Shown here: positions 11,891-44,936 of the stretch, piece after piece | Layout of the letters: each line of letters begins with the position of its first letter | How positions within the stretch are numbered: position 1 is the first letter of the stretch | From: Candidatus Kaiserbacteria bacterium | Lineage (GTDB): Bacteria; Patescibacteriota; Minisyncoccia; Phycocordibacterales; Phycocordibacteraceae | Length of the DNA stretch: 64,000 nucleotides | Assembly: GCA_016182485.1 (NCBI GenBank) | Contig: JACPGH010000007.1 | Coordinates: 27,656 to 91,655, forward strand | Direction: 5' to 3' | Notes under the pieces: generated by a model | Told to the model about the DNA's origin: nothing | What the model saw: the letters and a program-made list of their open reading frames with translations, nothing else | Database searches by the model: none | Translations under genes and position numbers: made by a program

Positions 11891-11902
11891 TGTTAGACTA
11901 AA

Positions 11903-12889: not shown

Positions 12890-12892
12890 TTT

Positions 12893-15209: not shown

Positions 15210-15235
15210 GCTCTAAGTATACAGCATGAAACTAC

Positions 15236-16216: not shown

Positions 16217-16708
16217 CTAGAATTTCGCCAGCCTTCGCGCGTGGCGCGGCGAATCAGAGAACGGCGTGTTCAGGAAAATGCGGACCGCTTCGTCGGCTTC
16301 GCTCCCCGAAACGAACCGGGCGCCGATGCAGAGCACGTTCGCGTTATTGTGCCGGCGCGGGAGGCGCACGGCGTCATACCCGTCCTCCGAGCGGCCGCCT
16401 TCGATGTCGAGCGCTTCGGTCACCCGCATGGGGCCGTAGAAGACCGCGGCGCGGACGCCGGGCACTCGATTGGCGCACATCGCTTCGCCCTGCCCGCTGC
16501 CCCCGAGCGCGATGCCGCGCGCTTCGGGCTCGGCCGCCACGCGGCGGGCGAGCGCCCCGACGACGTCCGGATAATCGTCATCCGGCGCGAGCGAGTACGC
16601 GCCCAGGTCTTCGGCCTCGTGTCCGAGCGCCCGCACGTGCTCGAGGAGCGCGTTCTTCAGGTCAAACCCGGCGTGGTCAGAAGCAAAATAAATTTTCATA
16701 ATTTTCAA
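16217..16708 (-). CDS. rpiB: Ribose-5-phosphate isomerase B (RpiB/LacAB family)
   Basis: MKIYFASDHAGF… and the catalytic Cys region (GSGQGEAMCANR). Confidence 0.85.
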   Translation of the reverse strand: MKIMKIYFASDHAGFDLKNALLEHVRALGHEAEDLGAYSLAPDDDYPDVVGALARRVAAEPEARGIALGGSGQGEAMCANRVPGVRAAVFYGPMRVTEALDIEGGRSEDGYDAVRLPRRHNNANVLCIGARFVSGSEADEAVRIFLNTPFSDSPRHARRLAKF

Positions 16709-16802
16709 TTTTGCAATTTACAATTTTCAAATTATGTCCCAATTTCCAATGTATTAATGTTTGAAAATTTATTGTAAATTGCAAATTGATAATTGAGAAT
16801 TG
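16709..16802. repeat. Family-1 AT-rich palindromic element, inverse orientation
   Basis: Loop ccaatgtattaatgtttg is the reverse complement of the loop in the 12893-13010 copy. Confidence 0.75.
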
Positions 16803-17852: not shown

Positions 17853-17933
17853 GATGATAGTGTAGCATGGCCAAAAATGAGAATTTTCAATTTTGCAATT
17901 TTCAATTTTCAATAAATTTTCAAGGCTCAATTT
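17853..17933. repeat. Family-1 element, left-arm type (caattttcaa repeats), abutting the 3' end of the 4HB gene
   Basis: gagaattttcaattttgcaattttcaattttcaataaattttcaaggctcaattttcaaac. Confidence 0.7.
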
Positions 17934-18293
17934 TCAAACGGATCGCGCCGAGGCAGCAATTTTTTGGAAAATTAATGTTAATTCTTGGCTCTCTTTCTGT
18001 AATCTCCCTAAAGCATCGTCTTCTATCGTCCCACAGGACACCAGCATCCTAAGCCAGTGCTTCGTTTCTTGTATCTCTTTTTTGCATATGTAAATCTTGT
18101 TGACGAAATCTCTTTTTGAGCTGGCGCCGTTCGCTTCCATATAATTGGCTCCTACGCTCGTACCAGAGCGTAAAAGTTGGTTAACAATTGGATCTGTTAT
18201 ATGACTACGATGGATTTTCTTACAAAGCGATATAATTTCTTCACCAAACCGAGCCGTTCTTTCTTCTAGATCGTATTTCTTCGTTTGATCCAT
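17934..18293 (-). CDS. Four-helix-bundle protein (PF05635/TIGR02436, '23S rRNA intervening-sequence protein' family)
   Basis: 119 aa. Motifs LRSGTSVGANYMEA and RDFVNKIYICKKEIQETKHWL match the 4HB family. Sits exactly between a left arm and a right arm of a family-1 element. Confidence 0.75.
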   Translation of the reverse strand: MDQTKKYDLEERTARFGEEIISLCKKIHRSHITDPIVNQLLRSGTSVGANYMEANGASSKRDFVNKIYICKKEIQETKHWLRMLVSCGTIEDDALGRLQKESQELTLIFQKIAASARSV

Positions 18294-18339
18294 TGAAAAT
18301 TGGTCCTTATTTGAAAATTGGAAATTGTAAATTGAAAAA
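18294..18339. repeat. Family-1 element, right-arm type (ttgaaaattg repeats), upstream of the 4HB gene
   Basis: ccattgaaaattggtccttatttgaaaattggaaattgtaaattgaaaaatt. Confidence 0.7.
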
Positions 18340-33300: not shown

Positions 33301-36300
33301 CGGCGTGCCGATGTCCTGTGTGCCGTCAAGCGCTTCGATGTTGCCCGTGATGATGTTGGAGCCGATGCGGAGCGTCCCGCCAGCGGCGACGATGTCGTGA
33401 TTGCCCGTACCGGTGAAGGTGAGGCCCGATCCGGCGCCGTCTATCGTCACGCCGCCGTTCAAGAGCGACGCGCCGTTGACCGAGAACTTTGACGATGGGG
33501 TTGAAGTCCCTATGCCGACGTTGCCATCCGAGTCGATGATGAAAGGAGTGGAATCGGGAGAAGCAGTATCCTCTACGACAAAGGAAGGGAAACTATTATC
33601 GCCATTGGTCACGCTCAACTTCCCCCATGGAGTCGTTGTGCCAACACCGGCCGCCGATTTGCTTCGAGTGAGTGATAGAACCGTATTAACAACACCTCCC
33701 AGGGCCCGCTCGATATGCAGGTCTCCGCCGTTTGTATCCACTGCGGTCGTCGAGACGCGGAATCCCCAGGTCTGACGACCGCCGGTGAGCGAATCGCCCA
33801 AAGTAAGCACTTGATTAGAGCCAGCCGTGTCACCTCCCGAGGTAAGGATATTCAGCGCGCCAAGTGGAGCCTGTGTCCCTATTCCCACCCTCCCATTCGC
33901 GAGTACGGTCACGAGCGTGCTCGTCGAAGTGCCGGCAGTCGTAGACGCGATAGTGAAGAGCGGCGTGTCTACAGCCGTCGACGCAGAATTTGAGATCGAC
34001 AGGAGGGAGTAGGGAGAAGTCGTCCCGATGCCGACATTTCCTGCCGTATCGATGCGCATGCGCTCGAGATTGTTCGTGCCGAAGACGACAGGGTTATTCG
34101 AGGTAGCGCCGAAAGCGACTATGCCGCCCGCATCGGCCATATTTCCCTTGAACAATACGGAGTTGTTAAGTTGTAGCGCACCGAATAGATTCCCCGTCTG
34201 CGTCGTGCCATACACATCGACCGCGCCATAGGAGTTCCCGTCGTTTTGAATAGAGACTTGGGTCCTGCTATTGGGATCCGCCCCGGTTATCGCCACCTGC
34301 GTCTGCCCACTACCCGAACCGAGGATATCCAGCAATCTTGTGGGTACAGCTTTGCCGATACCGATCTTGCCGTTCGCGAGCACGGTCATGAGGGTCGAAG
34401 TCGAGGTGCCGCCGGTGGTCGAGGCGATGGTGAACAAGGGCGTGTTGACCGTTGTTTGTTGGCTGTTTGAAATTGAGAGAAGCGAATATGGAGAAGTGGT
34501 CCCGATACCGACGTTTACGGCGTTCGCGCCCGTGCCTCCCAGCACGAGAGAGTTGCTCGCGCCGACGATTGCGTTCGCGCCGATAGCCGTAGCGTTTGTC
34601 AAAGTACTCGAAGCCGCATCGGCCAAGTGGCCCAAGAACGTATTGTAGGTTCCTGTTGTGTTAGTCCAGCCTGCATAAGTCCCGAAGGCTGCGTTATTAC
34701 TACCAGTGGTGTTGTAGCGTAAAGAACGATATCCATAACCAGCGTTGAAGTTACCGGTCGTATTTACCGAGGCGGCTTGATAGCCCGCTACGGTGTTGTA
34801 ATCGCCAGTCGTGTTTGCATCTAACACAAGACTGCCAAGGGCCGTGTTGTAGCTGCCGGTCGTATTGGCGGTGAGAACCTGCAAACCGAGCGCCGTATTG
34901 TGCCTGCCCGTCGTATTTACTGGCAGAGTGTATCCGCCTATTGCCGTGTTGTAATCGCCCGTCGTGTTCGCATTGAGCGCGAGATTGCCGATCGCGGTGT
35001 TATATAGCCCGGTAGTGTTAGCGGTCAGCGTGTTCGCGCCGATGCCCGTGTTCTGCGTCCCGGTCATCGTGAAGTTGCCCGCGTCGAGGCCGAGGAATGT
35101 GTTGTCCGTGCCGTAATTGTGGAGGAAGCGCATCGAGTTGACGTATACGCCGCCGGCCGTCGCGGTCGAAGAGGCGAGGACGAGATTGCCGCTAAACGTA
35201 GTCCCGCCTGTGATAGTGAGCCGGCCGAAGGTGGCCTCCGCCGCCGCGACCGAGATGCCGTTCGTGAGCGTGCTCCTGTCGAAAGTCCCGCCGCCGAAGG
35301 TGCCGTTATTGATGGTCAGATTATCGAGCTTTTCGATTCTCGCCACTTGCTGAATGGTCGTGATATTGGTCGCGGTCTGTCGCGAGATTGGCGAGAGCAT
35401 GCCGCCGACGGTGGAGAGAATGTCGTTTTTGAGCGCATTGAGCGAGAGCGTAACGTAGTCCTGTGTGACGCCCTCGACGACGGTGGTGTAGAAGTTGGAG
35501 GCTGGTTGCTGGAGGCTGGTTACTGGAATGATGTAGGCGCTAGCCGGAGCGGAGGCGACAACCGGGGTGGAGCTTGCCGTGCCCTTCGTAGCCTTTGTCG
35601 CAGGCTTAGGCGAAGTAGGGGAGCTTGCCGTGCCCTTCGTAGCCTTTGTCGCAGGCTTAGGCGAAGTAGGGCTATATACGATGACGGGCGCTGGTGCGGG
35701 GTTCAAAAGATACGCGAGGCCGCTCGCCCCGTTAGAAATCAGATTTCTAACGGGGCTGGTCGCAGAGTCCCAAAAATTGTTGATCGCTCGGTAGGTCGTA
35801 AGCGCGACTTTTTCTCCGGCCGAGAGCTGGGAGATGACGGCGGCGACGGGAGTGCCTTCGCGGTTCATATTTTCAAGAAGAGCAGGACCCTTGCCGCGCG
35901 TCGCCTCGTACGCGCCGACGATGGTTCTGCCGACCGCGCTGAATATCTGCGGGTCATTCACCATCTCGCTGAACCTTCGAGGAGCGAGTGTGAGCGGCTG
36001 GGCGGCTGCGACACCCGCATACGCGAGGTCCCCGGTCCCGGTAACGAGGGCGAGATATCGGTCGGAAGCGAAGGCGGTCGCGCCGACGAAGCGGTGCGCG
36101 AGCGCGTACTCGGCGTCGAATACCGCCTGAGCGATTCTCGGCCCTGCTTCGCTCACGCTACGCAGGGCGAGCCCGGCTTTTTCTGGCGTTTTGATAGTAG
36201 CGGCGACAGTCGCCCGCGCGAGCAGATCGCCTGTATTCCCGACGAGCGCCACGGTGGCGCGCCCTGCTTCGTTAAAACTACGCAGGGCAAGAGCGCTTAC

Positions 36301-37398
36301 TTCAGGTGCGGCAGTGGCGGGTACATACGCGAGCGAGACGTCCGCCTGGATCGCCGCATGCGTGAGATCGATGACTGCATTGCCGAACGCGAGATTCACG
36401 CGATTGACGAAGGATGGGGAAGCGGCCAGCGCATCGCGCGCCGTCGCCGCGAAAGCGAGCGCTTCTCTCCCCGAGACATCGAGGAGCGATCGATACGTCG
36501 AAAATATTTTCTCGACCGCGCCGTACGAGTTCTCGCCAAGCGCGAGGTACTGCTCTTTGCCGACGCGCGCCACGTTTGCGGGCGCATGCAGGATAGCGCC
36601 TCGCATGCGCTCCGGAGAAGAGAGGAACGCGAATGTCTCGAGGATACTGTCCTCGAGAAGCTGGGCTTCGCTCGCAGACAATTCACGCGAAGTAATAGGA
36701 GAAGTGCCGCGCCCGCCGCTCGCCCCGTTAGAAATCAGATTTCTAACTGGGCGGGCATCAAGCTTCAGTACGAACAGTGGCGAAAGAGAGATGTCCTTAA
36801 TCTCTGACGTCGCATATGTCCTATGTGCATCCTCTGATTTGGTCGTATTCCTAAAGGACGCCGATTTACGCTGGTTCAGATCCGCGGATATCCTCTGATA
36901 TGGATCCGCGCTAATCTCCCGGAAGCCGAAAGCGACGACGCGCGCGAACGAACCGAGAGCGCGTGCTGCCTGCGGAATGATCGGGGTCTGCGCGGCGAAA
37001 GCCGCTCCGGTTACCACGAACGCGGCTACCGAAAGCGCGGCGAGTTGAGAACGCCATCCGCTAAACGCAGATGATCGCAGATCTAAATCCGCGGATATCC
37101 GCTGATTCAATTTGGCGGAAATCCGCTTATACATCTGCGGAATCCGCGCAGCATGCCGGTGTGAGCGATATTCAGCTTCGCGCGCGCGCGCGAGCGCGCG
37201 CGAATAATCAGACTTACGCGCTTCCTGCCGGTCAAGGAAGCGGATAAGAGACTCTCTGCCGACGAACCAGCTGTGGCCGATCTTTTTTCCGGAAATTTTC
37301 CCGCTGCGGACTAGACGCGCGAGGTAATCGGAAGTATATCCGGACAGCTCTCCAGCATCCTTTGTCGTGATCAGATTTCCGTTAAGAGAAGGATCCAT
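18340..37398 (-). CDS. Giant (6352 aa) membrane-anchored fibre/adhesin-like protein: N-terminal cytoplasmic HTH_17 (MerR/excisionase-type) domain, one TM helix, ~6000-aa extracellular region with YadA-head-like NTAIG/NTTG repeats and dozens of phage-tail-fibre-like GNVGIGTTSP repeats, two tandem peptidase-S74-like intramolecular chaperone domains, and C-terminal DUF5011-like Ig domains
   Basis: Uninterrupted 19,059-nt ORF. N-terminal motif ITTKDAGELSGYTSDYLARLVRSGKISGKKIGHSWFV. TM segment WRSQLAALSVAAFVVTGAAFAA. ggactcgtcgtcccgatgccgacgttgcc (GNVGIGTTSP on the minus strand) recurs throughout. CSASDERLKQDI…FYW…GLIAQQV…MILAIQEL matches the S74 autoproteolytic chaperone. PPIVTLNGEAAMQISEGQTFTDPGATATDETDGDLT…TDAAGN matches DUF5011. 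Confidence 0.8.
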   Translation of the reverse strand: MDPSLNGNLITTKDAGELSGYTSDYLARLVRSGKISGKKIGHSWFVGRESLIRFLDRQEARKSDYSRALARAREAEYRSHRHAARIPQMYKRISAKLNQRISADLDLRSSAFSGWRSQLAALSVAAFVVTGAAFAAQTPIIPQAARALGSFARVVAFGFREISADPYQRISADLNQRKSASFRNTTKSEDAHRTYATSEIKDISLSPLFVLKLDARPVRNLISNGASGGRGTSPITSRELSASEAQLLEDSILETFAFLSSPERMRGAILHAPANVARVGKEQYLALGENSYGAVEKIFSTYRSLLDVSGREALAFAATARDALAASPSFVNRVNLAFGNAVIDLTHAAIQADVSLAYVPATAAPEVSALALRSFNEAGRATVALVGNTGDLLARATVAATIKTPEKAGLALRSVSEAGPRIAQAVFDAEYALAHRFVGATAFASDRYLALVTGTGDLAYAGVAAAQPLTLAPRRFSEMVNDPQIFSAVGRTIVGAYEATRGKGPALLENMNREGTPVAAVISQLSAGEKVALTTYRAINNFWDSATSPVRNLISNGASGLAYLLNPAPAPVIVYSPTSPKPATKATKGTASSPTSPKPATKATKGTASSTPVVASAPASAYIIPVTSLQQPASNFYTTVVEGVTQDYVTLSLNALKNDILSTVGGMLSPISRQTATNITTIQQVARIEKLDNLTINNGTFGGGTFDRSTLTNGISVAAAEATFGRLTITGGTTFSGNLVLASSTATAGGVYVNSMRFLHNYGTDNTFLGLDAGNFTMTGTQNTGIGANTLTANTTGLYNTAIGNLALNANTTGDYNTAIGGYTLPVNTTGRHNTALGLQVLTANTTGSYNTALGSLVLDANTTGDYNTVAGYQAASVNTTGNFNAGYGYRSLRYNTTGSNNAAFGTYAGWTNTTGTYNTFLGHLADAASSTLTNATAIGANAIVGASNSLVLGGTGANAVNVGIGTTSPYSLLSISNSQQTTVNTPLFTIASTTGGTSTSTLMTVLANGKIGIGKAVPTRLLDILGSGSGQTQVAITGADPNSRTQVSIQNDGNSYGAVDVYGTTQTGNLFGALQLNNSVLFKGNMADAGGIVAFGATSNNPVVFGTNNLERMRIDTAGNVGIGTTSPYSLLSISNSASTAVDTPLFTIASTTAGTSTSTLVTVLANGRVGIGTQAPLGALNILTSGGDTAGSNQVLTLGDSLTGGRQTWGFRVSTTAVDTNGGDLHIERALGGVVNTVLSLTRSKSAAGVGTTTPWGKLSVTNGDNSFPSFVVEDTASPDSTPFIIDSDGNVGIGTSTPSSKFSVNGASLLNGGVTIDGAGSGLTFTGTGNHDIVAAGGTLRIGSNIITGNIEALDGTQDIGTPSVRFDKIYANEVSAVTVVGTIVGGNVQAETLTVNSDNTSADQESAYLVFARGSSSPNAQLAWNAATSSKRFEFNQPLYIQDASLTSATSTLFVQGWSGQTSDLFRIASSSDTVTPYLTVTSAGNVGIGTTTPAEQLEITGNFRLPVTTTAVGQIKMGDNRWIDSYGTGNLMIGTNGAPAGNTTLTGTYNIGIGGDLVLSSITTGTSNIAIGRYGLKSLTTGNNNSVLGYLAGASLTTASNNVAIGTSALNSNVTTDGLTALGAYALADTTGVENTGLGLQAGYHISTGAYNTAVGSNAIGGAIVTGDFNTAVGRSAMSANTSGASNIGIGVNVLLSNTTGSYNIAMGQSALQTATSSSNQVAIGYQALLNMITGPSNDTEGNVALGYNAGNAITYGGGNILLGYQAGDALTTGSRNIILGYDIDAPAVTSSNILNIGNLIYGTGIDGTGTTLSSGNVGIGTTSPSGKLTVEAASGVVNSAESAGTLVLRSSDAAAIDKGPQLRFSGFGGGATGALAFATIAGRMESNPNAGYLQFSTTQTDSTIAERMRITSTGNVGIGTAGPNYKLDIATASSNTQIRFGSDGTNSGGFLISTADSQGNIAGGMSWNGSSYVARSTMASQVENYLGNIRFFTNSGLTAGNSFTPTERMRIDTSGNVGIGTASPGSGIATALTTSLHIGPGSGTNPGIVLQDNSNSKKHILRIIDDAFWISADDGSIQRTDIAIKSDTGNVGIGTTSPAALLSVHGNSYVSGTGFFGGAITGTSTLAVGTSTLTNLIVTNTSTSTLTGGLVAGTNVRASLPSDPTWYTEISAENSGSYLKTAGYSVLNLRVGATNVMALNGSSNTLAGNLGLSTSKILGVDNIAYIDLYNPSTGNIHITNTSASATYGNILFETGASATEQMRITNSGNVGIGTTSPYAKLSVVGETVSQYFTATSTTATSTFAGGLSAGNAGLLVMQNGAVQIGGSDRFDFTPGPTSIFTINNPNSNSIGINLNTGDSQSAFVNFSRSSAVKWGLGLPYSASDNFVISKGNAPAEDSSAVFTILSSNNNVGIGTTSPNNNLQVVSGAAGSAPLAITNTSDNYTVRVTSSGALPYWQFTNAAVSAVVNAGIDASSLNLGRGNVQIIGSDTPTASTIPARLYVVGDGTNPAAIFNTGNIGIGTTTPSARLDIVPTTVPSQTYAPIMILESRLANGYSEQGGYIGFRQVDVGNNVVTNDAARIVAVHDNFQAEQGDTGLSFWTTPANLSVAERVRISSTGNVGIGTTTPGVLLDVVKNSTSDNGTIFPTVRVRNLSTSDKSYAQFQVDVAGGGVTSYWQGEGVGTGKLGTPGAFIGTYTNHPFAFVTNDSEKMRLTAGGNLGIGETAPGSKLSVSGGATIGASYDTTVAPTNGLIVEGNVGIGTTSPYSLLSISNSAGTTVNTPLFTIASTTAGNSTSTLMTVLANGNVGIGTAAPGYTLDVTKSEPGNYVANFYNSNTTNGSHGMYVNVAQGSNTNALVVATEGTPRLTVNSTGVVSGGNFTTTSGYIGYDVNHNLNWTGSAYRLLSNADPITFVGAYELMRITAAGLVGIGSTTPWGQLSASSTSAYPTLAIEQKSTGPAAVFLGGNVGIGTTSPASLFSVHGNGLFSGNITAANITATGTLTAANISTTGYLSTSNAAVGGDDWYISAGDSGHLGFFKDSTAVSTNGKMVLTTGGLLGVGGGLNTATVPAEELEVYSSSGVTAIRITGDSNQGAPELQFNMRNGVANQAKIVGSSGESHNSPELQFYVNTGADSTNTLVQRMTINDLGKVGIGTTSPYSLLSISNSAGTTANTPLFTIASTTGGTSTSTLMTVLANGRVGIGTAGPSTLFDIVSNSSATSTIRQFLTSDAGPALQLIHARGTASAPSATCGVDCSSDTLGQIDFMGYDGSAYQTGARIIAEAAGNGSWSPGGLGTSLVFYGVDTNTSSLAERMRFQPNSTVEFFGLGASGLSLTGSQMIVSSSFRFGYGGTTQDGYVPATGPDGWGMISSTGSFRVNLDADNDNTGQAFVIGHHQTDGDATNNVLMVVNDSGNVGIGTTTPNWLLQAAGTRPSFALSDSSAGANLKHWLFSSMGGNLYVGTSTDAYGTSTPAALTITNAGNVGIGKAIPNFLAEFSRSDTTSTRSGNISAEIAVVNDLPGTNYGPGAGIRFLAPTGGVTPTPSVGRILGTFGGNCYGNDCSLLVFQTTTGANVFSDAMIISGTEVSIGTPTINPAVPLEVVGSVAPSSVGAAGILQLYRGVNDGVSYPNIAEFALGRYQVGDTNPYSRLDINLKSSGSFDKTGDVTVMTLQANGNVGIGTTSPGALLSISGGPASILFNRPNNSHDGGLTLDSNGAALWKVGFIGGLTSNNFYIRDGKDDKTLLAFAAAGLDNAISVSATQVAIASTLYANGSGNVGIGTTSPAALTSIGGDLFVGASTAGGTNGKLGIGVANPVQIIHAVGSTPYIRLDDSASSPAGKIVYFGNNAGRIILGTDAGTSGRKFSIGYNAPDDSMFIADSTGNVGIGTTSPLNLLHIATSGDDMTFGGNAGANVAGNLYYSSGWKYIEAAGGAAIGINDNNRAGDIGFYTAPSGAVGSAATLSARMYIQEGGNVGIGTTSPDALLNIQNYGGGQGLNSQFIVNSGYAAGPGSISMSVVNSGNVFLGFDVDEVAAAMVARGTAASMLRELNGELLFTGDTGLTMNSAFTPTTRMTLDLSNGKFGIGSTTPWGQLSASSTSAYPTLAIEQKSTGPAAVFLGGNVGIGVTNPTSKLVVAGSTSASPNDYVAVFRTIDDAANRPIIRIENSAQSELARWDYNGYLTAPGFYATSNYVLSVAPGNIIIASQSGSTLQMGDVNGKAQKLSLYSNGVESLTIDTSGNVGIGTTSPWGVLSVTNAGSGPSFVVEDTESPDATPFTIDAGGSVGIGVSNPALSLQVNGAAGVPANSGTTATGRVRFSGTDNIAMDFGALNTSPWSAWIQVHDSTDQSVNYPLSLQTNGGNVGIGTTNPGATLQVGTNVLTVSATTSNVGIGTVSPLATLHVAGDIFQPYSQQIRSGLDNTSIYGYLELYNTSTGNLTLQAHSANNRSALINPNGGNVGIGTTSPWADLHVRDTAQSAGITDTPDSWLNALFERAWGSSSAAGIAIVGSSKSTGGNGVVYLGNSDDWDNTALSGGNDVFKLYVGATIPFITAQGTGSGDGKLSIATTSANQVLTLYQPANDVAIELSALAGPTYKWTMGMDYSDGGKFKIASSSALGTDDRFVIDGNGNVGIGTTSPESRLAVAQPSAISSTFDLATLDANTNVTNASGVTQRGLVLKMPTFTMNNAPATLTGARIETGSPGQFDQGGDVATVRGIEITSGNWLGNTGGFTWRGVQITTPTMRKDHSGGNAQESYGIDITTGATTGSGTNGINTGLRITGGSQSNAGIQRGLHINMADASHAALIVQTGNVGIGTTTPGVLLDVYKSSNLVSRFDSGSHNYLRLNRGAVTNNNELEFQTNGTTNWAMGLGDDSENKFYITTNNAVPSDGAKLTITTAGNVGIGTTSPVGHLEIANTTTNNTRLILRGTTGNGAVLINGTDLTTAQEWFKIDAFGRASFDEQAQSTAETPAVNISNLTGYGIFGSSYLGFTTNASEKMRITSGGNVGIGTTSPYSILSISNAAGTAVNTPLFTIASTTAGTSTSTLMTVLANGNVGIGAAAPGGKLSVAGNIFFGDESHYLSTDNSTYAMLSSNRDVQLSISGNPKLTVQASTGNVGIGTTTPTNTLTVSGTRVAGSLTSVAKIGTSGFGGQTGDAIGLLFSDTATGGYDFARIQTRAPGGSNMALDFGVWDGSTISNYMTIIKNGNVGIGTTSPQSKLHVTGGFSGITPLAGTVLTVENSGSNYLSLLAPNANEQALLFGSPNNVADGGVFYSPNGLSRGMSFRTGGNATQMVINSTGNVGIGTTTPLSILQTTTGGDNYFVMDNKNYATSEGIWRLHVGNTTDFFSIEQNTAAVRDFSTSYTPFFIGGVSGGYNQRVGIGTTTPGSKLSIAGGVSVGTNYGAAAPTNGMIIEGNVGIGTTSPGTLLSLGDTGANTINISATATSTFGSGIDIRTGCFAINGVCVGGGSGTGTVGSGTAGQFPYYAGTGTTLTATSSLYVATNERVGIASSTPFAKFAVENTSAALSFAVNDQAGDPTPFVIDDSGDVGIGTASPGGQSERFSIVTTAGSASAMTIYNGSDPNYIGEFGIDASTGNLIITSRLVGSGVQPIYMSASAIGLGTTTPATLLEVGGETANVTFDGYKNCTGFTSNGNGLLACSASDERLKQDISPLATASGLSAIDALRPVSFYWDPAAERSSQKQFGLIAQQVREVFPDLVQTSAPTSLTPDGTLSINYDGLAAPMILAIQELSTTSTRLAGRVGTLENEITALTGGYFGFSYEGSISARNEPVTAPIIANWVYASSTPASIVENLQKPAEGIEPSEIEVTGSFPHQAAGLFTVYGNVAADSFVASTSVWTSNLAVTNEGYINRLTAQEVSATSFVNTSTRALKTDINYMSASSTEAVLGKVRGLKVATYRYAAEAGSNPLRLGLIAEDARETAPEILSIDGNGVDLYKLATLTLAGVQTLAEKVDRAEVRLTSLEARLAALESGAVSSASGSPVSFSTTSLASAFNAFGAYIAKGIAQFGTLVADQFVAATNSAGTSSAGTVKIIAGNTVAEVQNAYVKPSTKIFVTFTASTTGSWYIAEKKDGSFRLVLESPQAGDTSFDYFLIQTEGQMATSTPESQISNSQFSISNSNTSTQWITVLGDNPYLIEVGGNFVDPGIDAGGAPVTTYINGVESEVGPGTIDTSSETTYIITYRVLGPNGSIMATRSVIVGNGSVVAGTTSQESQVTSQESSATPESEVISPDSDSQPPIVTLNGEAAMQISEGQTFTDPGATATDETDGDLTAKIATSGSADTATAGSYTLTYSATDAAGNTGSVSRLVTVIEPLSAATETSTTPQ
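18548..18570. repeat. Fifth copy of the REP palindrome (tgtgaaggtctgaccttcac), lying in frame inside the C-terminal DUF5011-like domain of the giant gene
   Basis: Identical 19-bp palindrome to the REPtron flanks. Encodes SEGQTFT. Confidence 0.7.
35567..35690. repeat. Perfect ~62-bp tandem duplication inside the giant gene (encodes SPTSPKPATKATKGTASS x2)
   Basis: ggagcttgccgtgcccttcgtagcctttgtcgcaggcttaggcgaagtaggg appears twice in succession. Confidence 0.85.
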
Positions 37399-38021: not shown

Positions 38022-38795
38022 CTATCTGTCTATTTCATAGACTACTACCCCTGCCATGAGCGAGGCTCGTTTATCCGATTCTATATATTTATCGAAATAT
38101 CCAGTGCCAAGTATCGCCAGGGCCATAGTACACACGGCAACTAAAGCTCCAGACAGATATATCGCAGAGACCATCCTCTTTCCTCTGCTTTTAGGCTGAT
38201 CGTCTCCTTTATCCTCTGCTTCCTTCGGGAAATCCGGCAGCAGCTCCTTAGGAGGATGCCGGTATATGGCGCGGATTGGTATGTCTACCGATTCTTCGCT
38301 CTTCTCTCCGGGTCCTTCCACGCGTTCCGCGCGCTCTTCAGGCTCGAAATTGGCCTTCTCTATTTCGTTGGACGCTGTAATTGGGGTCGTAGCTATGCTT
38401 GCAACCTGCTCAAACCATGATTTCCAAGTCTCTGCCATATTCAATGGCGCAGATTCCGCGGAATTGTTCTCATCCGCGGATATCCGCTGATTTGAATCGG
38501 CGGTTATCAGCTCCTCCAGAGGAGCAGGCCCGTAGCGTGGAGATTCCCAGGCAGAAGAGACAAAAGATCGTGACTCATGGCTCTTTCCCCTCTTAGGCTC
38601 CTGTTTGGGAGTCTCCTCGCCGAAGCGATGATCGCGGACCGCAGTCTCAAGAACATACCAATTCCGACCTACTAGCCTGGCAGGCAGACGCCCTTCTCGG
38701 CACAGCTGCCCTATGTAATCCTTCGCATACCCGGTTACCTTCGCAGCTTGTTTTGACGATATGTACTTCTTGTCTTCGATAAGCAGCTCGTCCAT
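38022..38795 (-). CDS. Small paralogue of the giant protein's N-terminus: HTH_17-type DNA-binding domain + RISAD repeat region + C-terminal TM anchor (257 aa)
   Basis: KYISSKQAAKVTGYAKDYIGQLCREGRLPARLVGRNWYV aligns with the giant N-terminus. Shared palindromic DNA motif atccgcggatatccgctgat. C-terminal hydrophobic helix. Confidence 0.6.
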   Translation of the reverse strand: MDELLIEDKKYISSKQAAKVTGYAKDYIGQLCREGRLPARLVGRNWYVLETAVRDHRFGEETPKQEPKRGKSHESRSFVSSAWESPRYGPAPLEELITADSNQRISADENNSAESAPLNMAETWKSWFEQVASIATTPITASNEIEKANFEPEERAERVEGPGEKSEESVDIPIRAIYRHPPKELLPDFPKEAEDKGDDQPKSRGKRMVSAIYLSGALVAVCTMALAILGTGYFDKYIESDKRASLMAGVVVYEIDR

Positions 38796-38847: not shown

Positions 38848-40347
38848 CTATCCTATTCGTTCCCGTAGCAACTTTTGCAGTTCTTGAGGATTGCCCGCTC
38901 CGCGGCTCTCCCGCATAGCCTGCCCGACCAGGTACTGAAGGGAGGCCTGTTTGCCGCCTCTGTACTCCTCAACCGCCTTCTGCTCGCGGGCAATTACGGA
39001 ATCAACTATGGCGCCGAGCGCAGTCGCATCGTGCACTTGGATAAGATCGTGCTCCTTCGCGATAATTTCCGGATCTTCATTACCGCCGCCTTCTACTAAA
39101 AGCGCGAGCGTATCCTTCGCGCCGCGGGAAGAGAGCGACTGGGCTTTCACCAGCTTGATGAGTTTTGCGAATGCATTTGGATCCAGTGATTCGTAATCTT
39201 CATTCCCTTTCTTTGCGTATATACCGGCAAGATCTGAAACTATGTAATTTGCCGCCAGACGAACATTATCCGAATCATTTGAAAGCGCGGCTGCGACGGC
39301 GTCGAAGAAGGCCGCCCGCTCGAGAGTGCCTGAGACATATGCGATATCGTTCTCCTTAAGCGCATAGTCTCTCGCGTACCGCTCGCGCCGGAGCCAGGGC
39401 AGCTCGGGCAGCGACGCGCGTATCGCTTCAGTCCCGAATTCCGGAATCTCAGAAATAAGCAGCTTGGGCAGATCGGGTTCCGGAAAATACCTATAGTCGG
39501 CGCTCCCCTCTTTAAACCGCTGGTGGAAGGTCTCCTGTTTTTCTTCGTTCCAGCCGCGCGTCTCCTGCACCACCTTCCCTCCTTCTTGGAGCAGTTTCGT
39601 CTGCCGCTTGATCTCAAAATCAATCGCCCGCTCCACTGACCTAAACGAATTCAGGTTTTTTATTTCGACCTTTGTTCCCAGTTTTGAATTTTGGTCATTG
39701 GTGCTTGTTTGGTTCTTGAGATTTGGTTCTTGGGATTTAGCCACGCTGACGTTCGCCTCGATGCGCATCTCGCCTTTTTCCAGATTCGCTTCGCTGGCGC
39801 CGAGAGTGCGCAAGAGAAGCTGCAGTTCGCGCGCGAAGCGGCCGGCAGTCGAAGCATCGGGGATGACCGGCTCCGTTACTAGCTCCATGAGCGGGATGCC
39901 CGCGCGATTGAAATCGACGAGACTCCTTCCTGCAGTCCGTTCGCTGCGCTCAGGATCTCCGGCTTCGCCTGCGACGTGAATAGAGCGGGCGGTATCTTCT
40001 TCGAGATGCACGCGCGTCAATTCCACTCCAACAAGAGAGCCGCCGACAACAAGCGGGTTGGCATACTGACTGATCTGATACCCCTTCGGAATATCCGGGT
40101 AAAAATAGGACTTGCGATCGAATTCGCTGTAGTCCGCGAGCGCGCCGCCGAGCGCGGTGCCGACACGCAGGATATGCCGCACCGCCTCCCGATTCGCTAC
40201 CGGCAGAGTCCCGGGGTGAGCGAGACAAATGGGACATATATTGACGTTCGGCCGCGTCTCGTCCGGATCGTTCGCGCAGGAGCAGAACATCTTGGTCCGG
40301 GTCTTGAGCTCGGCGTGGATCTCGAGACCGATGGTAGGACGATACAT
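38848..40347 (-). CDS. gatB: Asp-tRNA(Asn)/Glu-tRNA(Gln) amidotransferase subunit B
   Basis: MYRPTIGLEIHAELKTRTKMFCSC…, GatB/YqeY C-terminal domain. Start set at the conserved N-terminus; the upstream extension is repeat read-through. Contains an in-frame family-2 repeat insert at 39655-39765. Confidence 0.85.
   Translation of the reverse strand: MYRPTIGLEIHAELKTRTKMFCSCANDPDETRPNVNICPICLAHPGTLPVANREAVRHILRVGTALGGALADYSEFDRKSYFYPDIPKGYQISQYANPLVVGGSLVGVELTRVHLEEDTARSIHVAGEAGDPERSERTAGRSLVDFNRAGIPLMELVTEPVIPDASTAGRFARELQLLLRTLGASEANLEKGEMRIEANVSVAKSQEPNLKNQTSTNDQNSKLGTKVEIKNLNSFRSVERAIDFEIKRQTKLLQEGGKVVQETRGWNEEKQETFHQRFKEGSADYRYFPEPDLPKLLISEIPEFGTEAIRASLPELPWLRRERYARDYALKENDIAYVSGTLERAAFFDAVAAALSNDSDNVRLAANYIVSDLAGIYAKKGNEDYESLDPNAFAKLIKLVKAQSLSSRGAKDTLALLVEGGGNEDPEIIAKEHDLIQVHDATALGAIVDSVIAREQKAVEEYRGGKQASLQYLVGQAMRESRGAGNPQELQKLLRERIG
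39655..39765. repeat. Family-2 AT-rich repeat (ttggtcattggtgcttgtttggttcttgagatttggttcttgggattt) inserted in frame in gatB
   Basis: Identical motifs to the intergenic copies at 40375-40535 and 41932-41995. Encodes …KSQEPNLKNQTSTNDQNSKLGTKVEIKNL…. Confidence 0.7.
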
Positions 40348-40374
40348 ATGCGAAAGATACTTCATAAAGCACCA

Positions 40375-40535
40375 AATCTCAAATCGCAAGATCCAAGATG
40401 AGTGCCCAAGAACCAACCTCTAAGAACCAAACAAAAACCAATGTCCAAAGGACCAATGTTTTATTTTTGAAGATTGGTGCTTGAAATTTGTTTGGTACTT
40501 GGGGTTTGGTGCTTGGAATTTAGTATTTTTGAGAG
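40375..40535. repeat. Family-2 AT-rich imperfect-palindrome element (arms caagaacca… / …ttggtgcttgg), complete copy between gatB and obg
   Basis: Left arm ccaagaaccaacctctaagaaccaaacaaaaaccaatg and right arm cattggtc…ttggtgcttgaaatttgtttggtacttggggtttggtgcttgg are roughly reverse-complementary. Confidence 0.7.
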
Positions 40536-41483
40536 TGTACCCGAGAATGCTTTGACCGATTCGGGCTCTTCGACCGTGACTGAAAGCACTTCCCTGCCGG
40601 TACTAGCGGCTAGAAGCTGGATCCTGGTTTCTCGTTCTGCGGCAGATATGAGGTCTATTTTTGACAGGATAATAATCTCTCGTTTGCGGGTCAGGCCTTG
40701 GCCGAATGCCTCAAGCTCTTTGCACACCTCCTCATAGGCCTTTAGCGGGTCATCTTGGTCTGCCGAGACGAGATGCAAGAGAATACCTGTCCTTTCTATA
40801 TGCTTCAGGAATTTTATGCCGAGTCCTCGGCCAGCCGAGGCGCCTTCTATCAAACCAGGTATATCGGCCAGGATATAGCCATAGAAATCGCCGAGCGTTG
40901 GTTCGAGGGTTGTAAAGGGATAGTCCCCTATCTTAGACTTCGCGCGAGTAAGGGCGTTTAAGAGAGAGGATTTCCCGGCATTGGGCAAGCCAATGAGCCC
41001 CACATCGGCGATAAGCTTGAGAGACAGCTCGATATTCCCCTCCTTCCCCGGCTTGCCGGCTGTCTGCTGGAAAGGATTCCGGTTCGTAGAGCTCTTGAAG
41101 CGCGCGTTGCCGAGCCCGCCCTTCCCCCCGCGGAAGATAATGATGCGCTCCCCTTCTTCCTTCACCTCGTACTCCTTCCCGACCGAGGGCACTCGGACAT
41201 GCGTTCCGACCGGGACCTTAAGGAGAACCGGCTCGCCGTCCGCCCCGGTCTGAAGCTCGTTCTTCCCAGCTTCGCCGTCTTCTGCCTTAAATTTTTTCTC
41301 ATATTTATAATTGGCGAGAGCGGCATAATCACGCACTCCAACCAGAATAACGTCGCCTCCCCTGCCGCCATCCCCGCCCGAGGGCCCGCCCTTCGCCTTT
41401 TCTTTGGTCCGCCGCCAGCGAATGACGCCGTCGCCGCCCTTCCCCGCCGCGGCGTAGATTGTCACCTCGTCTACAAATGCCAT
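40461..41483 (-). CDS. obg: GTPase Obg/CgtA
   Basis: Obg fold N-domain (GGDGG repeats), G1 GLPNAGKSS, G3 DIPGLIEGA. Start set at MAFVDEV. The C-terminal 23 aa are encoded by the family-2 repeat. Confidence 0.85.
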   Translation of the reverse strand: MAFVDEVTIYAAAGKGGDGVIRWRRTKEKAKGGPSGGDGGRGGDVILVGVRDYAALANYKYEKKFKAEDGEAGKNELQTGADGEPVLLKVPVGTHVRVPSVGKEYEVKEEGERIIIFRGGKGGLGNARFKSSTNRNPFQQTAGKPGKEGNIELSLKLIADVGLIGLPNAGKSSLLNALTRAKSKIGDYPFTTLEPTLGDFYGYILADIPGLIEGASAGRGLGIKFLKHIERTGILLHLVSADQDDPLKAYEEVCKELEAFGQGLTRKREIIILSKIDLISAAERETRIQLLAASTGREVLSVTVEEPESVKAFSGTLSKILNSKHQTPSTKQISSTNLQK

Positions 41484-41571
41484 TGCACCACGATACGCTA
41501 AAAAGAACCAAGAACCAAATCGCAAGAACCAAACAAACCACGCTAAAAAGAACCAAGGACCAAACAAACAC
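41484..41571. repeat. Family-2 element, left-arm type (aagaaccaa periodic repeats)
   Basis: aaaaagaaccaagaaccaaatcgcaagaaccaaacaaaccacgctaaaaagaaccaaggaccaaacaaaca. Confidence 0.65.
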
Positions 41572-41931
41572 TCAGGATACCTTATTGATGATTGCAGTAA
41601 GTATGAGCATGATTTCCCGCGCCTCGGATCTCAAGCGATGGCATTCCGCTATTCCATTTTCATTTGACTCTAGCAAGGAAAGCCAAAAGGCACTTTCCTT
41701 TGCTTCTTTTCGAGATATCCGCAATCTCATAACGAAGTCCTTCTTCCCGAGCGCCTCATTTCCTTCAATATAATTTGCCCCAATGGCTCCGGATGAGCGA
41801 ACTAATTGCTTAGCATCTTCATTGTTTTGTATGGTTTTCGGTAATCTGGAAACAAGCTTTCGTACGTCTTGAGCAAAAATCAGCGTCCTTTCTTCAAGAT
41901 TAAAACGTTTGCTCTTTTGAACATTGGTCAT
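41572..41931 (-). CDS. Four-helix-bundle protein (second paralogue; PF05635/TIGR02436 family)
   Basis: 119 aa. SSGAIGANYIEGNEA…KDFVMRLRISRKEAKESAFWL. Sits between the left and right arms of a family-2 element. Confidence 0.75.
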   Translation of the reverse strand: MTNVQKSKRFNLEERTLIFAQDVRKLVSRLPKTIQNNEDAKQLVRSSGAIGANYIEGNEALGKKDFVMRLRISRKEAKESAFWLSLLESNENGIAECHRLRSEAREIMLILTAIINKVS

Positions 41932-44474
41932 TGAGATTTGTTTGGTTCTTGCGATTTGTGATTTGGTACTTCAATAATACTCCATCCGTCGGCGAGGAAC
42001 GGTTCGGCTTTTTTATATTTTATCGTCTTCGTTTCGTCGCCTTTTTTGATGGTAACAAAATCGTTCCGGCCGTAGGATTGCTTGTTTACGATCGGCTGAG
42101 ACCCGGAGTCTTCCGAGCCGGCGGCTATGAGTTGCGCCCGGATCTTCGCTTCTTCCGCCCTGATGCGCGCCTCGTCCCGCGGCAGGATGTGCGGAACCAT
42201 CTCGGCGATGGTGGCACGGATATTTTCTTCGAGCTGACGGAAGCGCGCGAGCCCTTCGCGCCGATACTCGATGAGAGGATCCCGCTGGCCATACGCGCGC
42301 AAGGACACCGAGCGGCGCAGATAATCCATCGCCTCTAGATGCTCGAGCCAGAAAGTGTCGATTACCTGCAGAAGGAGTCTCCGGAGGGTCGCTCCGAACG
42401 CCTCGCCTAGCTCGGCCTTCCTGGCTTCGAATGTCTCGAGGGTCTGCGCAGGCGCGCCCGCGAGCATCTCCCGGACGATCTCTTCCACTTCGGCGTTACT
42501 CCCGAGAAGCGCGGTCCGGCGGCGAGCATAGATCGCGAGCCGCTGGGTATTCATCACGTCGTCGTAGGCGAGCACCTGCTTGCGCGCGTCGAAGTTGAAG
42601 CCCTCGATGCGCTCCTGCGCCGTCTCGAGCGACCGCGTTATCATCGCGCTCTCTATCGGCTCGTCCTCGGGAATGCCGAAGCGGCCCATCACCTTCTTCA
42701 GGGTCTCAGACGCGAACACGCGCATCAGCTTGTCTTCCAGAGATACGTAAAATCTCGTTTCGCCGGGATCGCCTTGGCGGCCGGAGCGGCCGCGCAGCTG
42801 ATTGTCGATGCGGCGCGCGTCATGCCGCTCCGTGCCGATGACCACCAACCCTCCCTTTAAGAGAACGGAGGCGCGCTCGTCCGCAGTGGCGCGCGCGCCG
42901 CCGAGCTTGATGTCGACGCCTCGGCCGGCGAGGTTGGTCGCCACCGTCACCCTCCCCTCCTTCCCCGCCTCCGCAATGATCTCGCCTTCGCGTTCGTGAT
43001 TCTTAGCGTTCAGCAACTCGTGCGGCACTCCCGCCTCGGCGAGATACCCGCTCACCAGCTCGTTGTCCTCGATCGATACGGTGCCGACGAGGATCGGCTG
43101 GCCTTTCTCATGCCGTTCCTTCACGGCTTTCGCCACCGCGCGGTATTTCCCGGCCGCCGTCTGGAATATGAGGTCGTCGTGATCCTTGCGCGCGACCGGC
43201 TTGTTAGTCGGGATGGCTACGACCTCGAGCCCGTAGACTGTATAAAATTCTTCCTCGGAAGAGAGGGCCGTGCCCGTCATGCCCGCGAGCCGCGCATACA
43301 TACGGAACAGATTTTGGAACGTCACGGTCGCGTACGTCCGCGTTTCTTCTTTCACTGCGGCGCCTTCTTTCGCCTCGATCGCTTGATGCAGGCCCTCCGA
43401 CCAGCGGCGGCCGGGCTGGAGCCTGCCGGTAAACTCGTCGACGATGACTATCTCGCCGCCCTGTACCACATATTCCTTATCCTTATGGAAAAGCGCCTTG
43501 GCGCGCACGGCCGTCTCAAGATGGTGCGCGTACTTCACCCCGCCCTCGGTATATAAGTTCTCGAGGCCGAGCGCCGCTTCGGCTTTTTTCATTCCCGCGT
43601 CCGTCACTTGGATCGCCTTCTGCTTCTCGTCCACCGTGTAATCCTCTCCCTCCCGCATGTGCTCGACGATGCCGGCGAACCGCTCGTAGAGCATCTGCGA
43701 ATCTCCCGCGGGCCCCGAGATGATAAGCGGAGTGCGCGCTTCGTCGATCAAGATCGAGTCTACCTCGTCGATGATCGCGTAATGGAAGCCGCTCTGCCGC
43801 TGGACTATCTGCGGCATTTCATACGCGGTATTGTCGCGCAGGTAATCGAATCCCAATTCGTTGTTCGTCACGTAGGTGATGTCCGCGGCGTACGCCTCCT
43901 GCTTGGACACCGGCCGCAGATAATCGTAAAAGACGAGATACGCCCCGGCTACATCGCGCGCCTCGTCCTCCTGCTTCTCCGTATGCGATGCGTCATATCG
44001 AAAGGCGCCGGAACTCGTCACCACGCCCACCGAAAGGCCGAGATAATCGTAGATCTGTCCCATCCAGGCCGCATCGCGCCGCGCGAGATAGTCGTTCACC
44101 GTGATGATGTGCACGCCTTTGCCGGAGAGCGCATGGAACGTGGCCGGTAGAGTCGCGACCAGCGTCTTCCCTTCTCCGGTGCGCATCTCGGCGATCTTCC
44201 CCTGCGCGAGCGCGAGCCCTCCCGCGAGCTGGACATCGAAATGGAACTGCCCGAGGGTACGGCGCGCCGCTTCGCGCACGAGAGCAAATACAAGCGGCAA
44301 GTCCTCCTCCCGAGCGGCTTCGCCCTTGAGCGCCGCGAGCCTCCCGGAAAGCGCCTCTTTCGGCAGTCCCGTAAGCTCGCCCTCGAGCGCATTCACCCTC
44401 TCGATGGCCGGCGCCGCCGCTTTGAGAAATGCGGCGGATTGATCCTTAGAGAATAAGCGCGAAAGCCCTAACAT
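41928..44474 (-). CDS. secA: Preprotein translocase ATPase SecA
   Basis: MLGLSRLFSKDQSAAFLKAAAPAIERVNALE… N-terminus, DEAD-like motor domains, GTERHDARRIDNQLRGRSGRQGDPG. Start set at the conserved Met; the upstream 100-codon ORF extension is not supported. Confidence 0.85.
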   Translation of the reverse strand: MLGLSRLFSKDQSAAFLKAAAPAIERVNALEGELTGLPKEALSGRLAALKGEAAREEDLPLVFALVREAARRTLGQFHFDVQLAGGLALAQGKIAEMRTGEGKTLVATLPATFHALSGKGVHIITVNDYLARRDAAWMGQIYDYLGLSVGVVTSSGAFRYDASHTEKQEDEARDVAGAYLVFYDYLRPVSKQEAYAADITYVTNNELGFDYLRDNTAYEMPQIVQRQSGFHYAIIDEVDSILIDEARTPLIISGPAGDSQMLYERFAGIVEHMREGEDYTVDEKQKAIQVTDAGMKKAEAALGLENLYTEGGVKYAHHLETAVRAKALFHKDKEYVVQGGEIVIVDEFTGRLQPGRRWSEGLHQAIEAKEGAAVKEETRTYATVTFQNLFRMYARLAGMTGTALSSEEEFYTVYGLEVVAIPTNKPVARKDHDDLIFQTAAGKYRAVAKAVKERHEKGQPILVGTVSIEDNELVSGYLAEAGVPHELLNAKNHEREGEIIAEAGKEGRVTVATNLAGRGVDIKLGGARATADERASVLLKGGLVVIGTERHDARRIDNQLRGRSGRQGDPGETRFYVSLEDKLMRVFASETLKKVMGRFGIPEDEPIESAMITRSLETAQERIEGFNFDARKQVLAYDDVMNTQRLAIYARRRTALLGSNAEVEEIVREMLAGAPAQTLETFEARKAELGEAFGATLRRLLLQVIDTFWLEHLEAMDYLRRSVSLRAYGQRDPLIEYRREGLARFRQLEENIRATIAEMVPHILPRDEARIRAEEAKIRAQLIAAGSEDSGSQPIVNKQSYGRNDFVTIKKGDETKTIKYKKAEPFLADGWSIIEVPNHKSQEPNKSQ
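41932..41995. repeat. Family-2 element, right-arm type (ttggttctt repeats)
   Basis: cattggtcattgagatttgtttggttcttgcgatttgtgatttggtacttc. Confidence 0.65.
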
Positions 44475-44600
44475 TGGGCCATCATACCCCGTATGACTAC
44501 TTTTCGCGATATTGCATATTGGTAAAAGTACGTACAGCCAGCGCGTGGAGGCATACATAGAAAACAGGCGCGGCATCGGCGAGTTGTCATACGGGGCATA

Positions 44601-44636
44601 ACAGAAAATCGCGTCCTCCGGGACGCGATTTTCTGT
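44601..44636 (-). promoter_or_regulatory. Perfect 16-bp stem hairpin (acagaaaatcgcgtcc-tccg-ggacgcgattttctgt) in the secA leader
   Basis: Lies ~125 nt upstream of the secA start and directly downstream of a 15-codon Lys-rich mini-ORF (44651-44698). Confidence 0.35.
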
Positions 44637-44936
44637 ATCGAGGCTGATACTATTTGCGCTTCTTCGATGCCTTTTTCTTTGCCTTCTTCTTTGCCATGGT
44701 GGTTGCAATTTAGAATAACGGCTGATATGTCGACCCGTCTGCGCATTCGCCAGCTGGCGAAAAATTTTCCGCAAACGTTTCTACTCACTAGTATCGCGCA
44801 TTAAAAATATTTTTTGGGTTAATTTTTGCGCGACCTGTGGATAAACTCGCGTCAAAAAATTTCTCCGCAAAAAAATTTTCTCTAAAAGTTTTGAAAATCT
44901 TCTTGTTTCTCCCGCTTGCCCAGTAGGAAATGCCTT

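Follow-up and report, generated by a model that had tools for sequence, protein, structure and literature searches.

The stretch of DNA considered here is a 64,000-nt window (below, the window) with a GC content of 55% from a Candidatus Kaiserbacteria genome, and our subject is a small gene between secA and obg which, together with inverted arrays of heptamers on both sides of it, forms a compact cassette. The genes on the minus strand run in the order secA (41928-44774), an open reading frame (ORF) of 119 amino acids (aa; 41572-41931), obg (40461-41486) and gatB (38848-40365). The ORF occupies the secA|obg spacer and reads on the same strand as both neighbours. Its product is a four-helix-bundle (4HB) protein of the PF05635/TIGR02436 (S23p) type, matching PF05635 (23S_rRNA_IVP; E = 2.6e-12, 47.3 bits, curated cut-off 33.8) and TIGR02436 ("four helix bundle protein"; E = 1.4e-20, 73.5 bits, curated cut-off 24). 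The protein is 100% identical to a Candidatus Kaiserbacteria protein and belongs to a large and exceptionally conserved family with more than 5370 matches at 55-72% identity across phyla. The AlphaFold (AF2) model of the monomer, with a predicted local distance difference test score (pLDDT) of 90, consists of four long helices that form a four-helix bundle. Among solved structures 2RLD is the sole match by sequence, and the PDB folds closest to the model are 2RLD and 2GSC (template-modelling score, TM, 0.75-0.83), followed by Avd of diversity-generating retroelements. These structural relatives are homopentamers, 2RLD having five chains.

The cassette and its border with obg are composed as follows:

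41937-41971, minus strand: 5′ terminal array, five phased heptamers AAGTACC AAATCAC AAATCGC AAGAACC AAACAAA
41932-41936, minus strand: 5-nt spacer TCTCA (family consensus TTCnA), between the AAACAAA heptamer and the ATG
41572-41931, minus strand: 4HB / S23p gene, 119 aa (PF05635, TIGR02436), predicted four-helix bundle
41548-41568, minus strand: proximal partial 3′ array TTTGTTT GGTCCTT GGTTCTT, one copy of a 45-nt direct duplication
41503-41537, minus strand: distal complete 3′ array TTTGTTT GGTTCTT GCGATTT GGTTCTT GGTTCTT, which pairs with 41937-41971
41487-41502, minus strand: obg leader (TTTAGCGTATCGTGGTGCA-ATG), outside the cassette; by alignment, a homologous leader is present in relatives with and without the cassette

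A sequence-only reading of this DNA had placed the ORF between two inverted arms, and this nesting is borne out: the arms at 41503-41537 and 41937-41971 are inverted, 35 nt long and 86% complementary. The boundaries then proposed need trimming. What had been taken as the right arm (41932-41995) contains the true arm at 41937-41971 and the spacer at 41932-41936, while 41972-41995 is secA coding sequence. The supposed left arm (41484-41571) is a composite of the three-heptamer array at 41548-41568 and the five-heptamer array at 41503-41537, the latter a product of the 45-nt direct duplication, while 41484-41502 is the obg leader and start codon. RNA folding joins the two arms in an uninterrupted, perfect long-range stem of 24 bp, and the arms can form an imperfect but stable duplex, with a free energy (dG) of -40.4 kcal/mol here and a mean of -29 kcal/mol across the loci described below. 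The stem ends 2-3 nt 5′ of the ATG, and there is no Shine-Dalgarno sequence. The last seven SecA codons are read from the 5′ array and spacer. Against an expectation of 0.30, the window has 10 copies of AAGAACCAA.

The 119-aa four-helix bundle is the cassette's sole ORF; no transposase is encoded, and examination of the ORFs and neighbour genes yielded no transposase or recombinase in the cassette or the adjoining genes. No reverse transcriptase lies beside the window cassette, whose neighbours are secA, obg and gatB, nor beside the cassette in other loci with Pfam-called neighbour genes. A direct-repeat scan of 40300-42100 gave no template/variable-type repeat pair, only heptamer-array families and short chance pairs. 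The PADLOC defence models match neither 4HB protein of the window (0 families), and an Rfam scan of the window returned one tRNA only and no rRNA. Counts of sigma-70 promoters and intrinsic terminators in or around the cassette (38.7-45.2 kb) are the same as in shuffles, and the arms carry no GC-rich stem with a T run of the intrinsic-terminator type.

The second 4HB gene of the window (17934-18293) is likewise bracketed by arms. The nesting is not a coincidence, as the sequence-only reading had argued, and the pattern extends well beyond the window. We assembled 83 non-redundant loci from one-per-species genomes of at least 10 phyla, and compared the 120-nt flanks of the 4HB gene with shifted positions in the same loci. 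Median flank complementarity is 34, versus 15 at the shifted positions, and lies above the 99th control percentile in 81% of the 83 loci. The first contexts fetched (two Parcubacteria, another Kaiserbacteria, a Flavobacterium relative and a Gemmataceae) have inverted heptamer arrays around the ORF in five cases out of five, and arms are present in seven of seven loci fetched later. All called neighbour genes in these seven lie on the 4HB strand, one locus (L178) having no downstream neighbour in the fetched stretch.

Anchored profiles resolve the 5′ arm into four AAnnnCN heptamers and an invariant AAACAAA, followed by TTCnA-ATG, and the 3′ arm into TTTGTTT followed by four N′GnnnTT heptamers. 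Information content falls to zero directly outside the five-heptamer arms on both sides. Five is the modal heptamer count (50 of 85 5′ arms, 48 of 85 3′ arms), and AAACAA stands exactly 12 nt 5′ of the ATG in 30 loci. The cassette is laid out as five heptamers (AAnnnCN...AAACAAA), a 5-nt spacer, the 4HB ORF from ATG to stop, a short variable segment and five mirrored heptamers (TTTGTTT...N′GnnnTT), with sharp outer ends. Heptamer positions 6-7 define dialects (CG, CT, CC, AC/TC and others), and both arms of a locus use the same dialect in 52 of 74 loci, against 18.4 expected. The two repeat families of the window had been called unrelated; this does not hold, for both are dialects of one AAnnnCN architecture (CC in family 2, TC/AC in family 1), and the two therefore belong to a single element superfamily and were not invented independently.

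The genomic settings of the cassette vary. Its neighbours differ wholly between genomes (cysS|dnaB, rimM|methyltransferase, CO-dehydrogenase subunits, cmr3|cmr2), and the 4HB gene shares its strand with both neighbours in 52 of 70 loci (background 0.49, p = 2e-5) and is never opposed to both. rRNA is present in 0 of 40 related loci tested, and no relatives were found in viral contigs. No direct repeats that would mark a target-site duplication lie outside the ends, either in 21 canonical loci or in the comparison of occupied and empty secA|obg sites. The GC content of the ORF follows that of the host (slope 0.82, r = 0.89) at about 9 points lower, which argues for long residence; recent horizontal acquisition, read from GC content, is rejected as a general explanation because the ORF tracks its host.

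Several individual loci show features of their own. A Pirellulales contig (L045) carries two 4HB cassettes, with genes at 181 and ~3001, in the CT and CG dialects. In another locus (L172, 990-1100) a CT-dialect 3′ array has grown to more than ten heptamers, which indicates that arrays can grow by slippage. Downstream of the 4HB gene in L027 and L070 there is a second 5′ array with AAACAAAT..ATG, which suggests tandem cassettes. Many loci (e.g., L004, L012, L015, L051, L071) have a conserved GTTTTGAACATTTGAATTT within the first 20-30 nt after the stop codon. This is the mirror image of AAATTCAAATG-TTCAAAAC: start codon and spacer have their complement immediately on the inner side of the 3′ array, and the palindrome therefore takes in the ATG.

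The history of the secA|obg site can be followed in relatives. The order secA-4HB-obg is common to the window and two further Kaiserbacteria loci (L001 and L016), and 4HB-obg-gatB is also found in another Parcubacterium (L007). A 4HB gene upstream of obg is present in 0 of 66 metagenomic Obg loci with enough upstream sequence; in the three closest of these (L093, L094 and L095, with Obg 65-73% identical), secA is followed directly by obg, and these are empty sites. Alignment of occupied and empty sites gives a clean indel of ~510 nt between the secA stop codon and the obg leader. The cassette is an all-or-none indel relative to close relatives, and in the Obg tree genomes that carry it are interspersed with genomes that lack it. 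In the comparison of the window with L001, the nonsynonymous distance (dN) is 0.234 for the 4HB gene, 0.218 for gatB and 0.228 for obg; the synonymous distance (dS) is saturated and dN/dS not computable, and the comparison is of dN alone. The arms are identical at 31 of 35 and 32 of 35 positions despite this saturation. With a dN on par with gatB and obg and with the arms kept, both protein and arms are under purifying selection. In L016 (3441-4477), obg is seemingly split into two ORFs of 152 and 260 aa, for which a frameshift, an assembly error or a pseudogene is possible.

The element has also given rise to an ORF-less hairpin and an in-frame fragment nearby. These and the other heptamer features of the window are:

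40487-40528, minus strand: ORF-less 5′ array AAATTCC AAGCACC AAACCCC AAGTACC AAACAAA, with a sixth unit AAATACT before it; encodes part of the Obg C-terminal tail
40461-40486, minus strand: ORF-less spacer TTTCA and ORF-start remnant AGC ACC AAT CTT CAA AAA TAA, identified by alignment (intact gene: ATG ACC AAT GTT CAA AAG)
40401-40435, minus strand: ORF-less 3′ array TTTGTTT GGTTCTT AGAGGTT GGTTCTT GGGCACT; hairpin z = -4.67
40367-40400, minus strand: extra 3′-type array that immediately precedes the gatB start; complementarity with the 4HB 5′ array 90%
39681-39738, minus strand: copy of the 5′ module (five heptamers, spacer and ATGACCAAAATTCAAAAC), in frame in gatB, adding 14 residues (KSQEPNLKNQTSTN)
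17882-18341, minus strand: second 4HB cassette, ORF 17934-18293, arms 18294-18341 / 17882-17933, AATTT(T/A/C)C dialect
11796-16808, no strand assigned: cluster of ORF-less palindromes of the AATTTTC dialect in intergenic spacers, at ~11796-11889, 12886-13009, 14166-14300, 15239-15365, 16118-16210 and 16691-16808

The ORF-less element first placed at 40375-40535 is real, with its span corrected to 40401-40528 and a further arm at 40367-40400. The claim that it is a version of the same element is upheld by its structure, which keeps the 5′ array, the spacer and the first six ORF codons, with ATG changed to AGC; the palindrome is a deletion derivative of the 4HB cassette. The similarity of the cassette arms to 40375-40535 also exceeds that of random AT-rich DNA, with Smith-Waterman scores of 40 (left) and 34 (right) against maxima of 34 (left) and 32 (right) in 1000 dinucleotide shuffles and of 33 in 116 other AT-rich windows of the sequence. 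Aligning three segments of the window shows one module in three copies, which runs from five heptamers through the 5-nt spacer into the ORF, of which it includes the first 18 nt. The copy in gatB starts ATG ACC AAA ATT CAA AAC, and the 14-residue insert that it contributes to GatB is missing from orthologous GatB proteins. Among relatives, L016 has an ORF-less palindrome in its obg|gatB spacer in the CG dialect, as in its 4HB arms, L007 has a degenerate one (CC), and L001 is without; the ORF-less copy in L016 and L007 thus tracks the dialect of the resident 4HB cassette.

Phased heptamer arrays number 21 in the window, against 0.55 in shuffles, and several lie within coding regions. They fall into two clusters with one 4HB gene each, at 11.8-19 kb (AATTTTC dialect) and 39.6-42 kb (AAGAACC dialect), and most do not adjoin a 4HB gene. 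Loci without a 4HB gene contain orphan arrays too, 10 per 100 kb. Three arrays of the window (13525-13552, 14734-14761 and 15929-15963) lie within the coding regions of both transketolase halves and ribulose-phosphate epimerase, where they yield peptide inserts such as QFSISNFKN and IENWKLEIENW; one is in a third dialect, AAACCAG.

Other repeats of the window are noted here as separate observations. Positions 18340-37398 on the minus strand hold a single ORF of 6352 aa with many "NVGIGTTSP"-type repeats and an N-terminal helix-turn-helix-like segment. It contains in-frame copies of several short DNA repeat families, among them a heptamer array at 18963-18997 (SQISNSQFSISNS) and GACTCTTGACT-type repeats at ~18650-18700. 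A family of GCAGAT / ATCCGC units forms an inverted pair 1.4 kb apart (37062-37131 and 38472-38511), and is translated into ISADLNQRxSA-like peptides at the N-terminus of the giant ORF and in a 257-aa ORF (38022-38795). The near-perfect palindrome GCCCCGTTAGAAATCAGATTTCTAACGGGGC is present in two copies 1 kb apart in the giant ORF (35722-35756 and 36722-36756), coinciding with the repeated peptide VRNLISNGASG. Copies of another palindrome, TGTGAAGGTCTGACCTTCACA, lie at 906-934, 1719-1784 and ~18545-18570, including within the giant ORF.

A closer look at the protein points to a candidate specificity residue. In the protein alignment one column goes with the dialect of the arms, namely that of N116, close to the C-terminal end of helix 4. 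The column holds Arg in 27 of 31 CG-dialect loci and 3 of 21 others (Fisher p = 2e-7, uncorrected for phylogeny), and Thr, Glu or Gly in all eight CT loci, which belong to at least three separate clades of a poorly resolved neighbour-joining tree; CC loci have mixed residues. For seven proteins no more than 76% identical to the training set, dialects were predicted beforehand from this residue. Arg gave CG in three of three cases and Thr gave CT in two of two, while a Glu for which CT was predicted gave TC, and a Gln for which non-CG was predicted gave CG. Five of the seven predictions are exact and six are right for CG versus non-CG (Fisher p = 0.14, a sample too small to stand alone). The two residues of L045 also fit their dialects, Thr with CT and Arg with CG. 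Together with the pentameric relatives, the covariation suggests that a pentameric protein may read the five heptamers.

We consider it probable, with moderate confidence, that the region is a cassette of the intervening sequence (IVS) type, like the S23p IVSs of 23S rRNA, situated in the secA|obg spacer of a protein-coding operon, transcribed by read-through, processed by RNase III and encoding a product that recognizes the heptamers. It is an IVS-type element in a new setting and not an rRNA IVS, as the ORF is conserved rather than decaying and lies outside rRNA, the defining location of such an IVS. By analogy with experiments on rRNA IVSs, read-through from the host operon would transcribe the cassette, and the two arrays would then pair into an imperfect stem of ~35-45 bp that closes beside the start codon. 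RNase III, as in rRNA IVSs, would cut this stem, releasing the cassette RNA and leaving the insertion harmless to the flanking genes. The 4HB protein, as a putative homopentamer, is predicted, from the covariation and the precedent of Avd, to recognize the heptamers with one protomer per heptamer. Position 7 of the heptamer may be read by the residue near the C-terminus of helix 4 (Arg with G). Under such a match between residue and base, each lineage of the protein would be bound to the dialect of its arms and also to the ORF-less copies in the same dialect.

Across 32 canonical arm pairs, the share of cells that pair is 82% (75% in shuffles). The covariation score of the arms is 0.235, compared with 0.115 in shuffles, and peaks sharply at the mirror register (slide 0). 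Of the 32 loci, 18 have no variable heptamer that fully complements its mirror unit. Several points weigh against the IVS-type reading. The covariation of the arms sits nearly all at heptamer position 7, pairing at positions 3-5 is 0.477 within a locus and 0.471 between loci (permutation p = 0.77), and within the CG dialect arm complementarity is the same within as between loci (p = 0.89). The sense strand has no excess of G·U over A·C mismatches (62 versus 81) and thus no specific sign of RNA pairing. RNase III cleavage and protein binding are carried over by analogy to copies outside rRNA, the link between residue and dialect lacks a phylogenetic correction, and two of the seven predictions failed in detail. 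GC content tracks the host and the synteny is old; mobility, if any, would be rare, and no insertion mechanism, target duplication or recombinase is visible. Compensatory evolution of the whole stem, specific to each locus, is rejected, as position 7 alone covaries, and the reading of the arms as a selected double-stranded RNA helix is downgraded. Since pairing within a locus is no better than between loci, the target of selection seems to be the motif and not the helix, and the conservation of the arms has the pattern of a recognized motif and not merely that of a helix.

This pattern lends itself to a second explanation, which we regard as unlikely, namely that the cassette is a transposable element at the level of DNA. 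The arrays would then be terminal inverted repeats serving as rows of binding sites on DNA, and the 4HB protein an accessory factor that binds the ends, while the ORF-less palindromes would resemble miniature inverted-repeat transposable elements (MITEs) moved by a recombinase of the host or one encoded in trans, and RNA pairing would be incidental. The sharp ends of the inverted repeats agree with this, as does conservation of the binding-site kind, in which AA..C. is fixed and the middle free, helix covariation is confined to position 7 and a G·U bias is lacking. Mobility of DNA would also account for ORF-less derivatives and a partial copy within gatB, for presence and absence at one site among close relatives, and for dialect lineages that cross phyla and meet on one contig (L045). 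No target-site duplication marks the insertions, however, and no transposase or recombinase lies in or beside the cassette. A DNA transposon would not require the strong bias towards the strand of both neighbours, and the ameliorated GC content, the long-lived 4HB-obg-gatB synteny and the lack of relatives found in viral contigs likewise count against one.

In another explanation, in our view distinctly improbable, the cassette is no longer selfish but a domesticated regulatory module. Here the hairpin and an RNA-binding pentamer would set the processing, stability or translation of the flanking mRNAs (secA, obg-gatB), and, with its start codon occluded by the stem, the protein would regulate itself by opening this stem or protecting it. 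The protein does evolve as slowly as its essential neighbours, and the arms are kept despite saturation at synonymous sites; the window, L016 and L007 have the linkage 4HB-obg-[ORF-less hairpin]-gatB in common; the stem stops 2-3 nt short of an ATG that has no Shine-Dalgarno sequence; and clusters of raised copy number are local. Yet neighbours that differ completely between genomes leave no shared regulated function apparent, and close relatives do without the cassette at the same site, as do 66 of 66 other Obg loci. Mere coincidence, in which species-specific hairpin repeats of spacers (like repetitive extragenic palindromes, or terminators) happen to flank a small resident gene, deserves next to no credence: although most of the 21 window arrays lie away from 4HB genes and orphan arrays occur at 10 per 100 kb in loci without one, it is refuted by the association with flanks across phyla in locus-matched dialects, the array at a fixed 12-nt distance from the ATG and the first ORF codons in the ORF-less copy, and further opposed by arm similarity above all AT-rich controls and the lack of a terminator-like signal.

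The IVS-type reading can be extended to a broader model, which is possible but which we put forward tentatively and with considerable doubt. S23p pentamers would be sequence-specific readers of five tandem heptamers, one protomer each, with the C-terminal residue of helix 4 setting position 7 (Arg-G, Thr-T). Together with the arrays they would form a self-contained cassette family that settles in rRNA helices as well as in the spacers of operons and gives rise to ORF-less hairpins and to in-frame insertions in essential genes. In evolutionary terms, this family would be the sister or the source of the Avd-RNA module of diversity-generating retroelements.

What the S23p family does has been an open question since 1993, and the "23S rRNA IVS protein" was still termed functionally uncharacterized in 2024 (PMC11270868). 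In this sample, the family is not mainly an rRNA phenomenon, but is part of a stereotyped cassette in mRNA operons of many phyla. The five phased heptamers are a candidate ligand for the S23p protein, with a candidate specificity residue, as judged from sequence comparison. S23p-type genes occur between cas genes, for example cmr3 and cmr2 (PMC3936711); the cassette reading accounts for 4HB genes in such unrelated operons and warns against functions assigned through guilt by association. The arms also rewrite host genes, as seen in the C-terminal tails of SecA and Obg and the 14-residue insert of GatB.

The closest known system is the rRNA IVS. S23p IVSs of 23S rRNA genes have reportedly been found in Leptospira, Coxiella burnetii, Xanthomonas and Brucella, in work attributed to Ralph and McClelland in 1993 and to Warrier et al. 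in 2016. The Coxiella IVS is 428 nt long, with inverted repeats, an S23p ORF and 3-4 tandem heptamers (GACAGAT) directly 5′ of the ATG; a usable Shine-Dalgarno sequence is lacking, and the RNase III cut falls at the first repeat (Warrier et al., PMC4990558). rRNA IVS and cassette share a PF05635 protein, an ORF in the loop of an inverted-repeat stem, tandem heptamers directly 5′ of the ATG, the lack of a Shine-Dalgarno sequence, a GC content below that of the host, a length of ~430-510 nt and probably an expression that depends on the host transcript. The cassette differs in lying between protein-coding genes and not in helix 45 or helix 25 of 23S rRNA, and in having exactly five heptamers per arm with an invariant inner AAACAAA. 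Purifying selection on its protein is strong; the Coxiella ORF, by contrast, is in decay and probably not translated. Excision by RNase III is known for the Coxiella IVS and would apply to the cassette by analogy. Our literature search, with subscription journals outside its coverage, found no account of heptamer-flanked 4HB cassettes outside rRNA.

The ORF-less palindromes invite comparison with the Correia/NEMIS elements of Neisseria, co-transcribed miniature inverted-repeat elements that RNase III cleaves. Both are 100-160 nt long with inverted ends, lie in co-directional spacers, form strong hairpins and extend neighbouring reading frames. The palindromes differ in their phased-heptamer ends, in lacking a target duplication and in being locally clustered rather than dispersed, and their apparent parent encodes a four-helix-bundle protein and not a transposase. 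For the proposed recognition of the arms, the logic would resemble that of TRAP-type ring proteins, which read tandem short RNA repeats with one repeat per subunit. A ring of n protomers would meet n repeats, here five protomers and five heptamers; the fold differs, and the likeness is purely one of analogy.

Avd offers a structural parallel. It is a homopentameric barrel (PDB 4DWL, 8UB7) that binds an RNA stem-loop encoded beside its own gene, with all five protomers contacting the RNA by the same residues and flipped-out bases held in crevices between protomers. The 4HB protein has the same four-helix-bundle fold (TM ~0.7) at 13-14% identity, and its cassette has no nearby reverse transcriptase or template/variable repeats. 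The RNA bound by Avd is an 11-bp stem-loop, whereas the arms of the cassette are heptamer arrays and RNA binding by the 4HB protein is putative. The comparison suggests a possible link between the S23p cassettes and the Avd-RNA interaction of diversity-generating retroelements.

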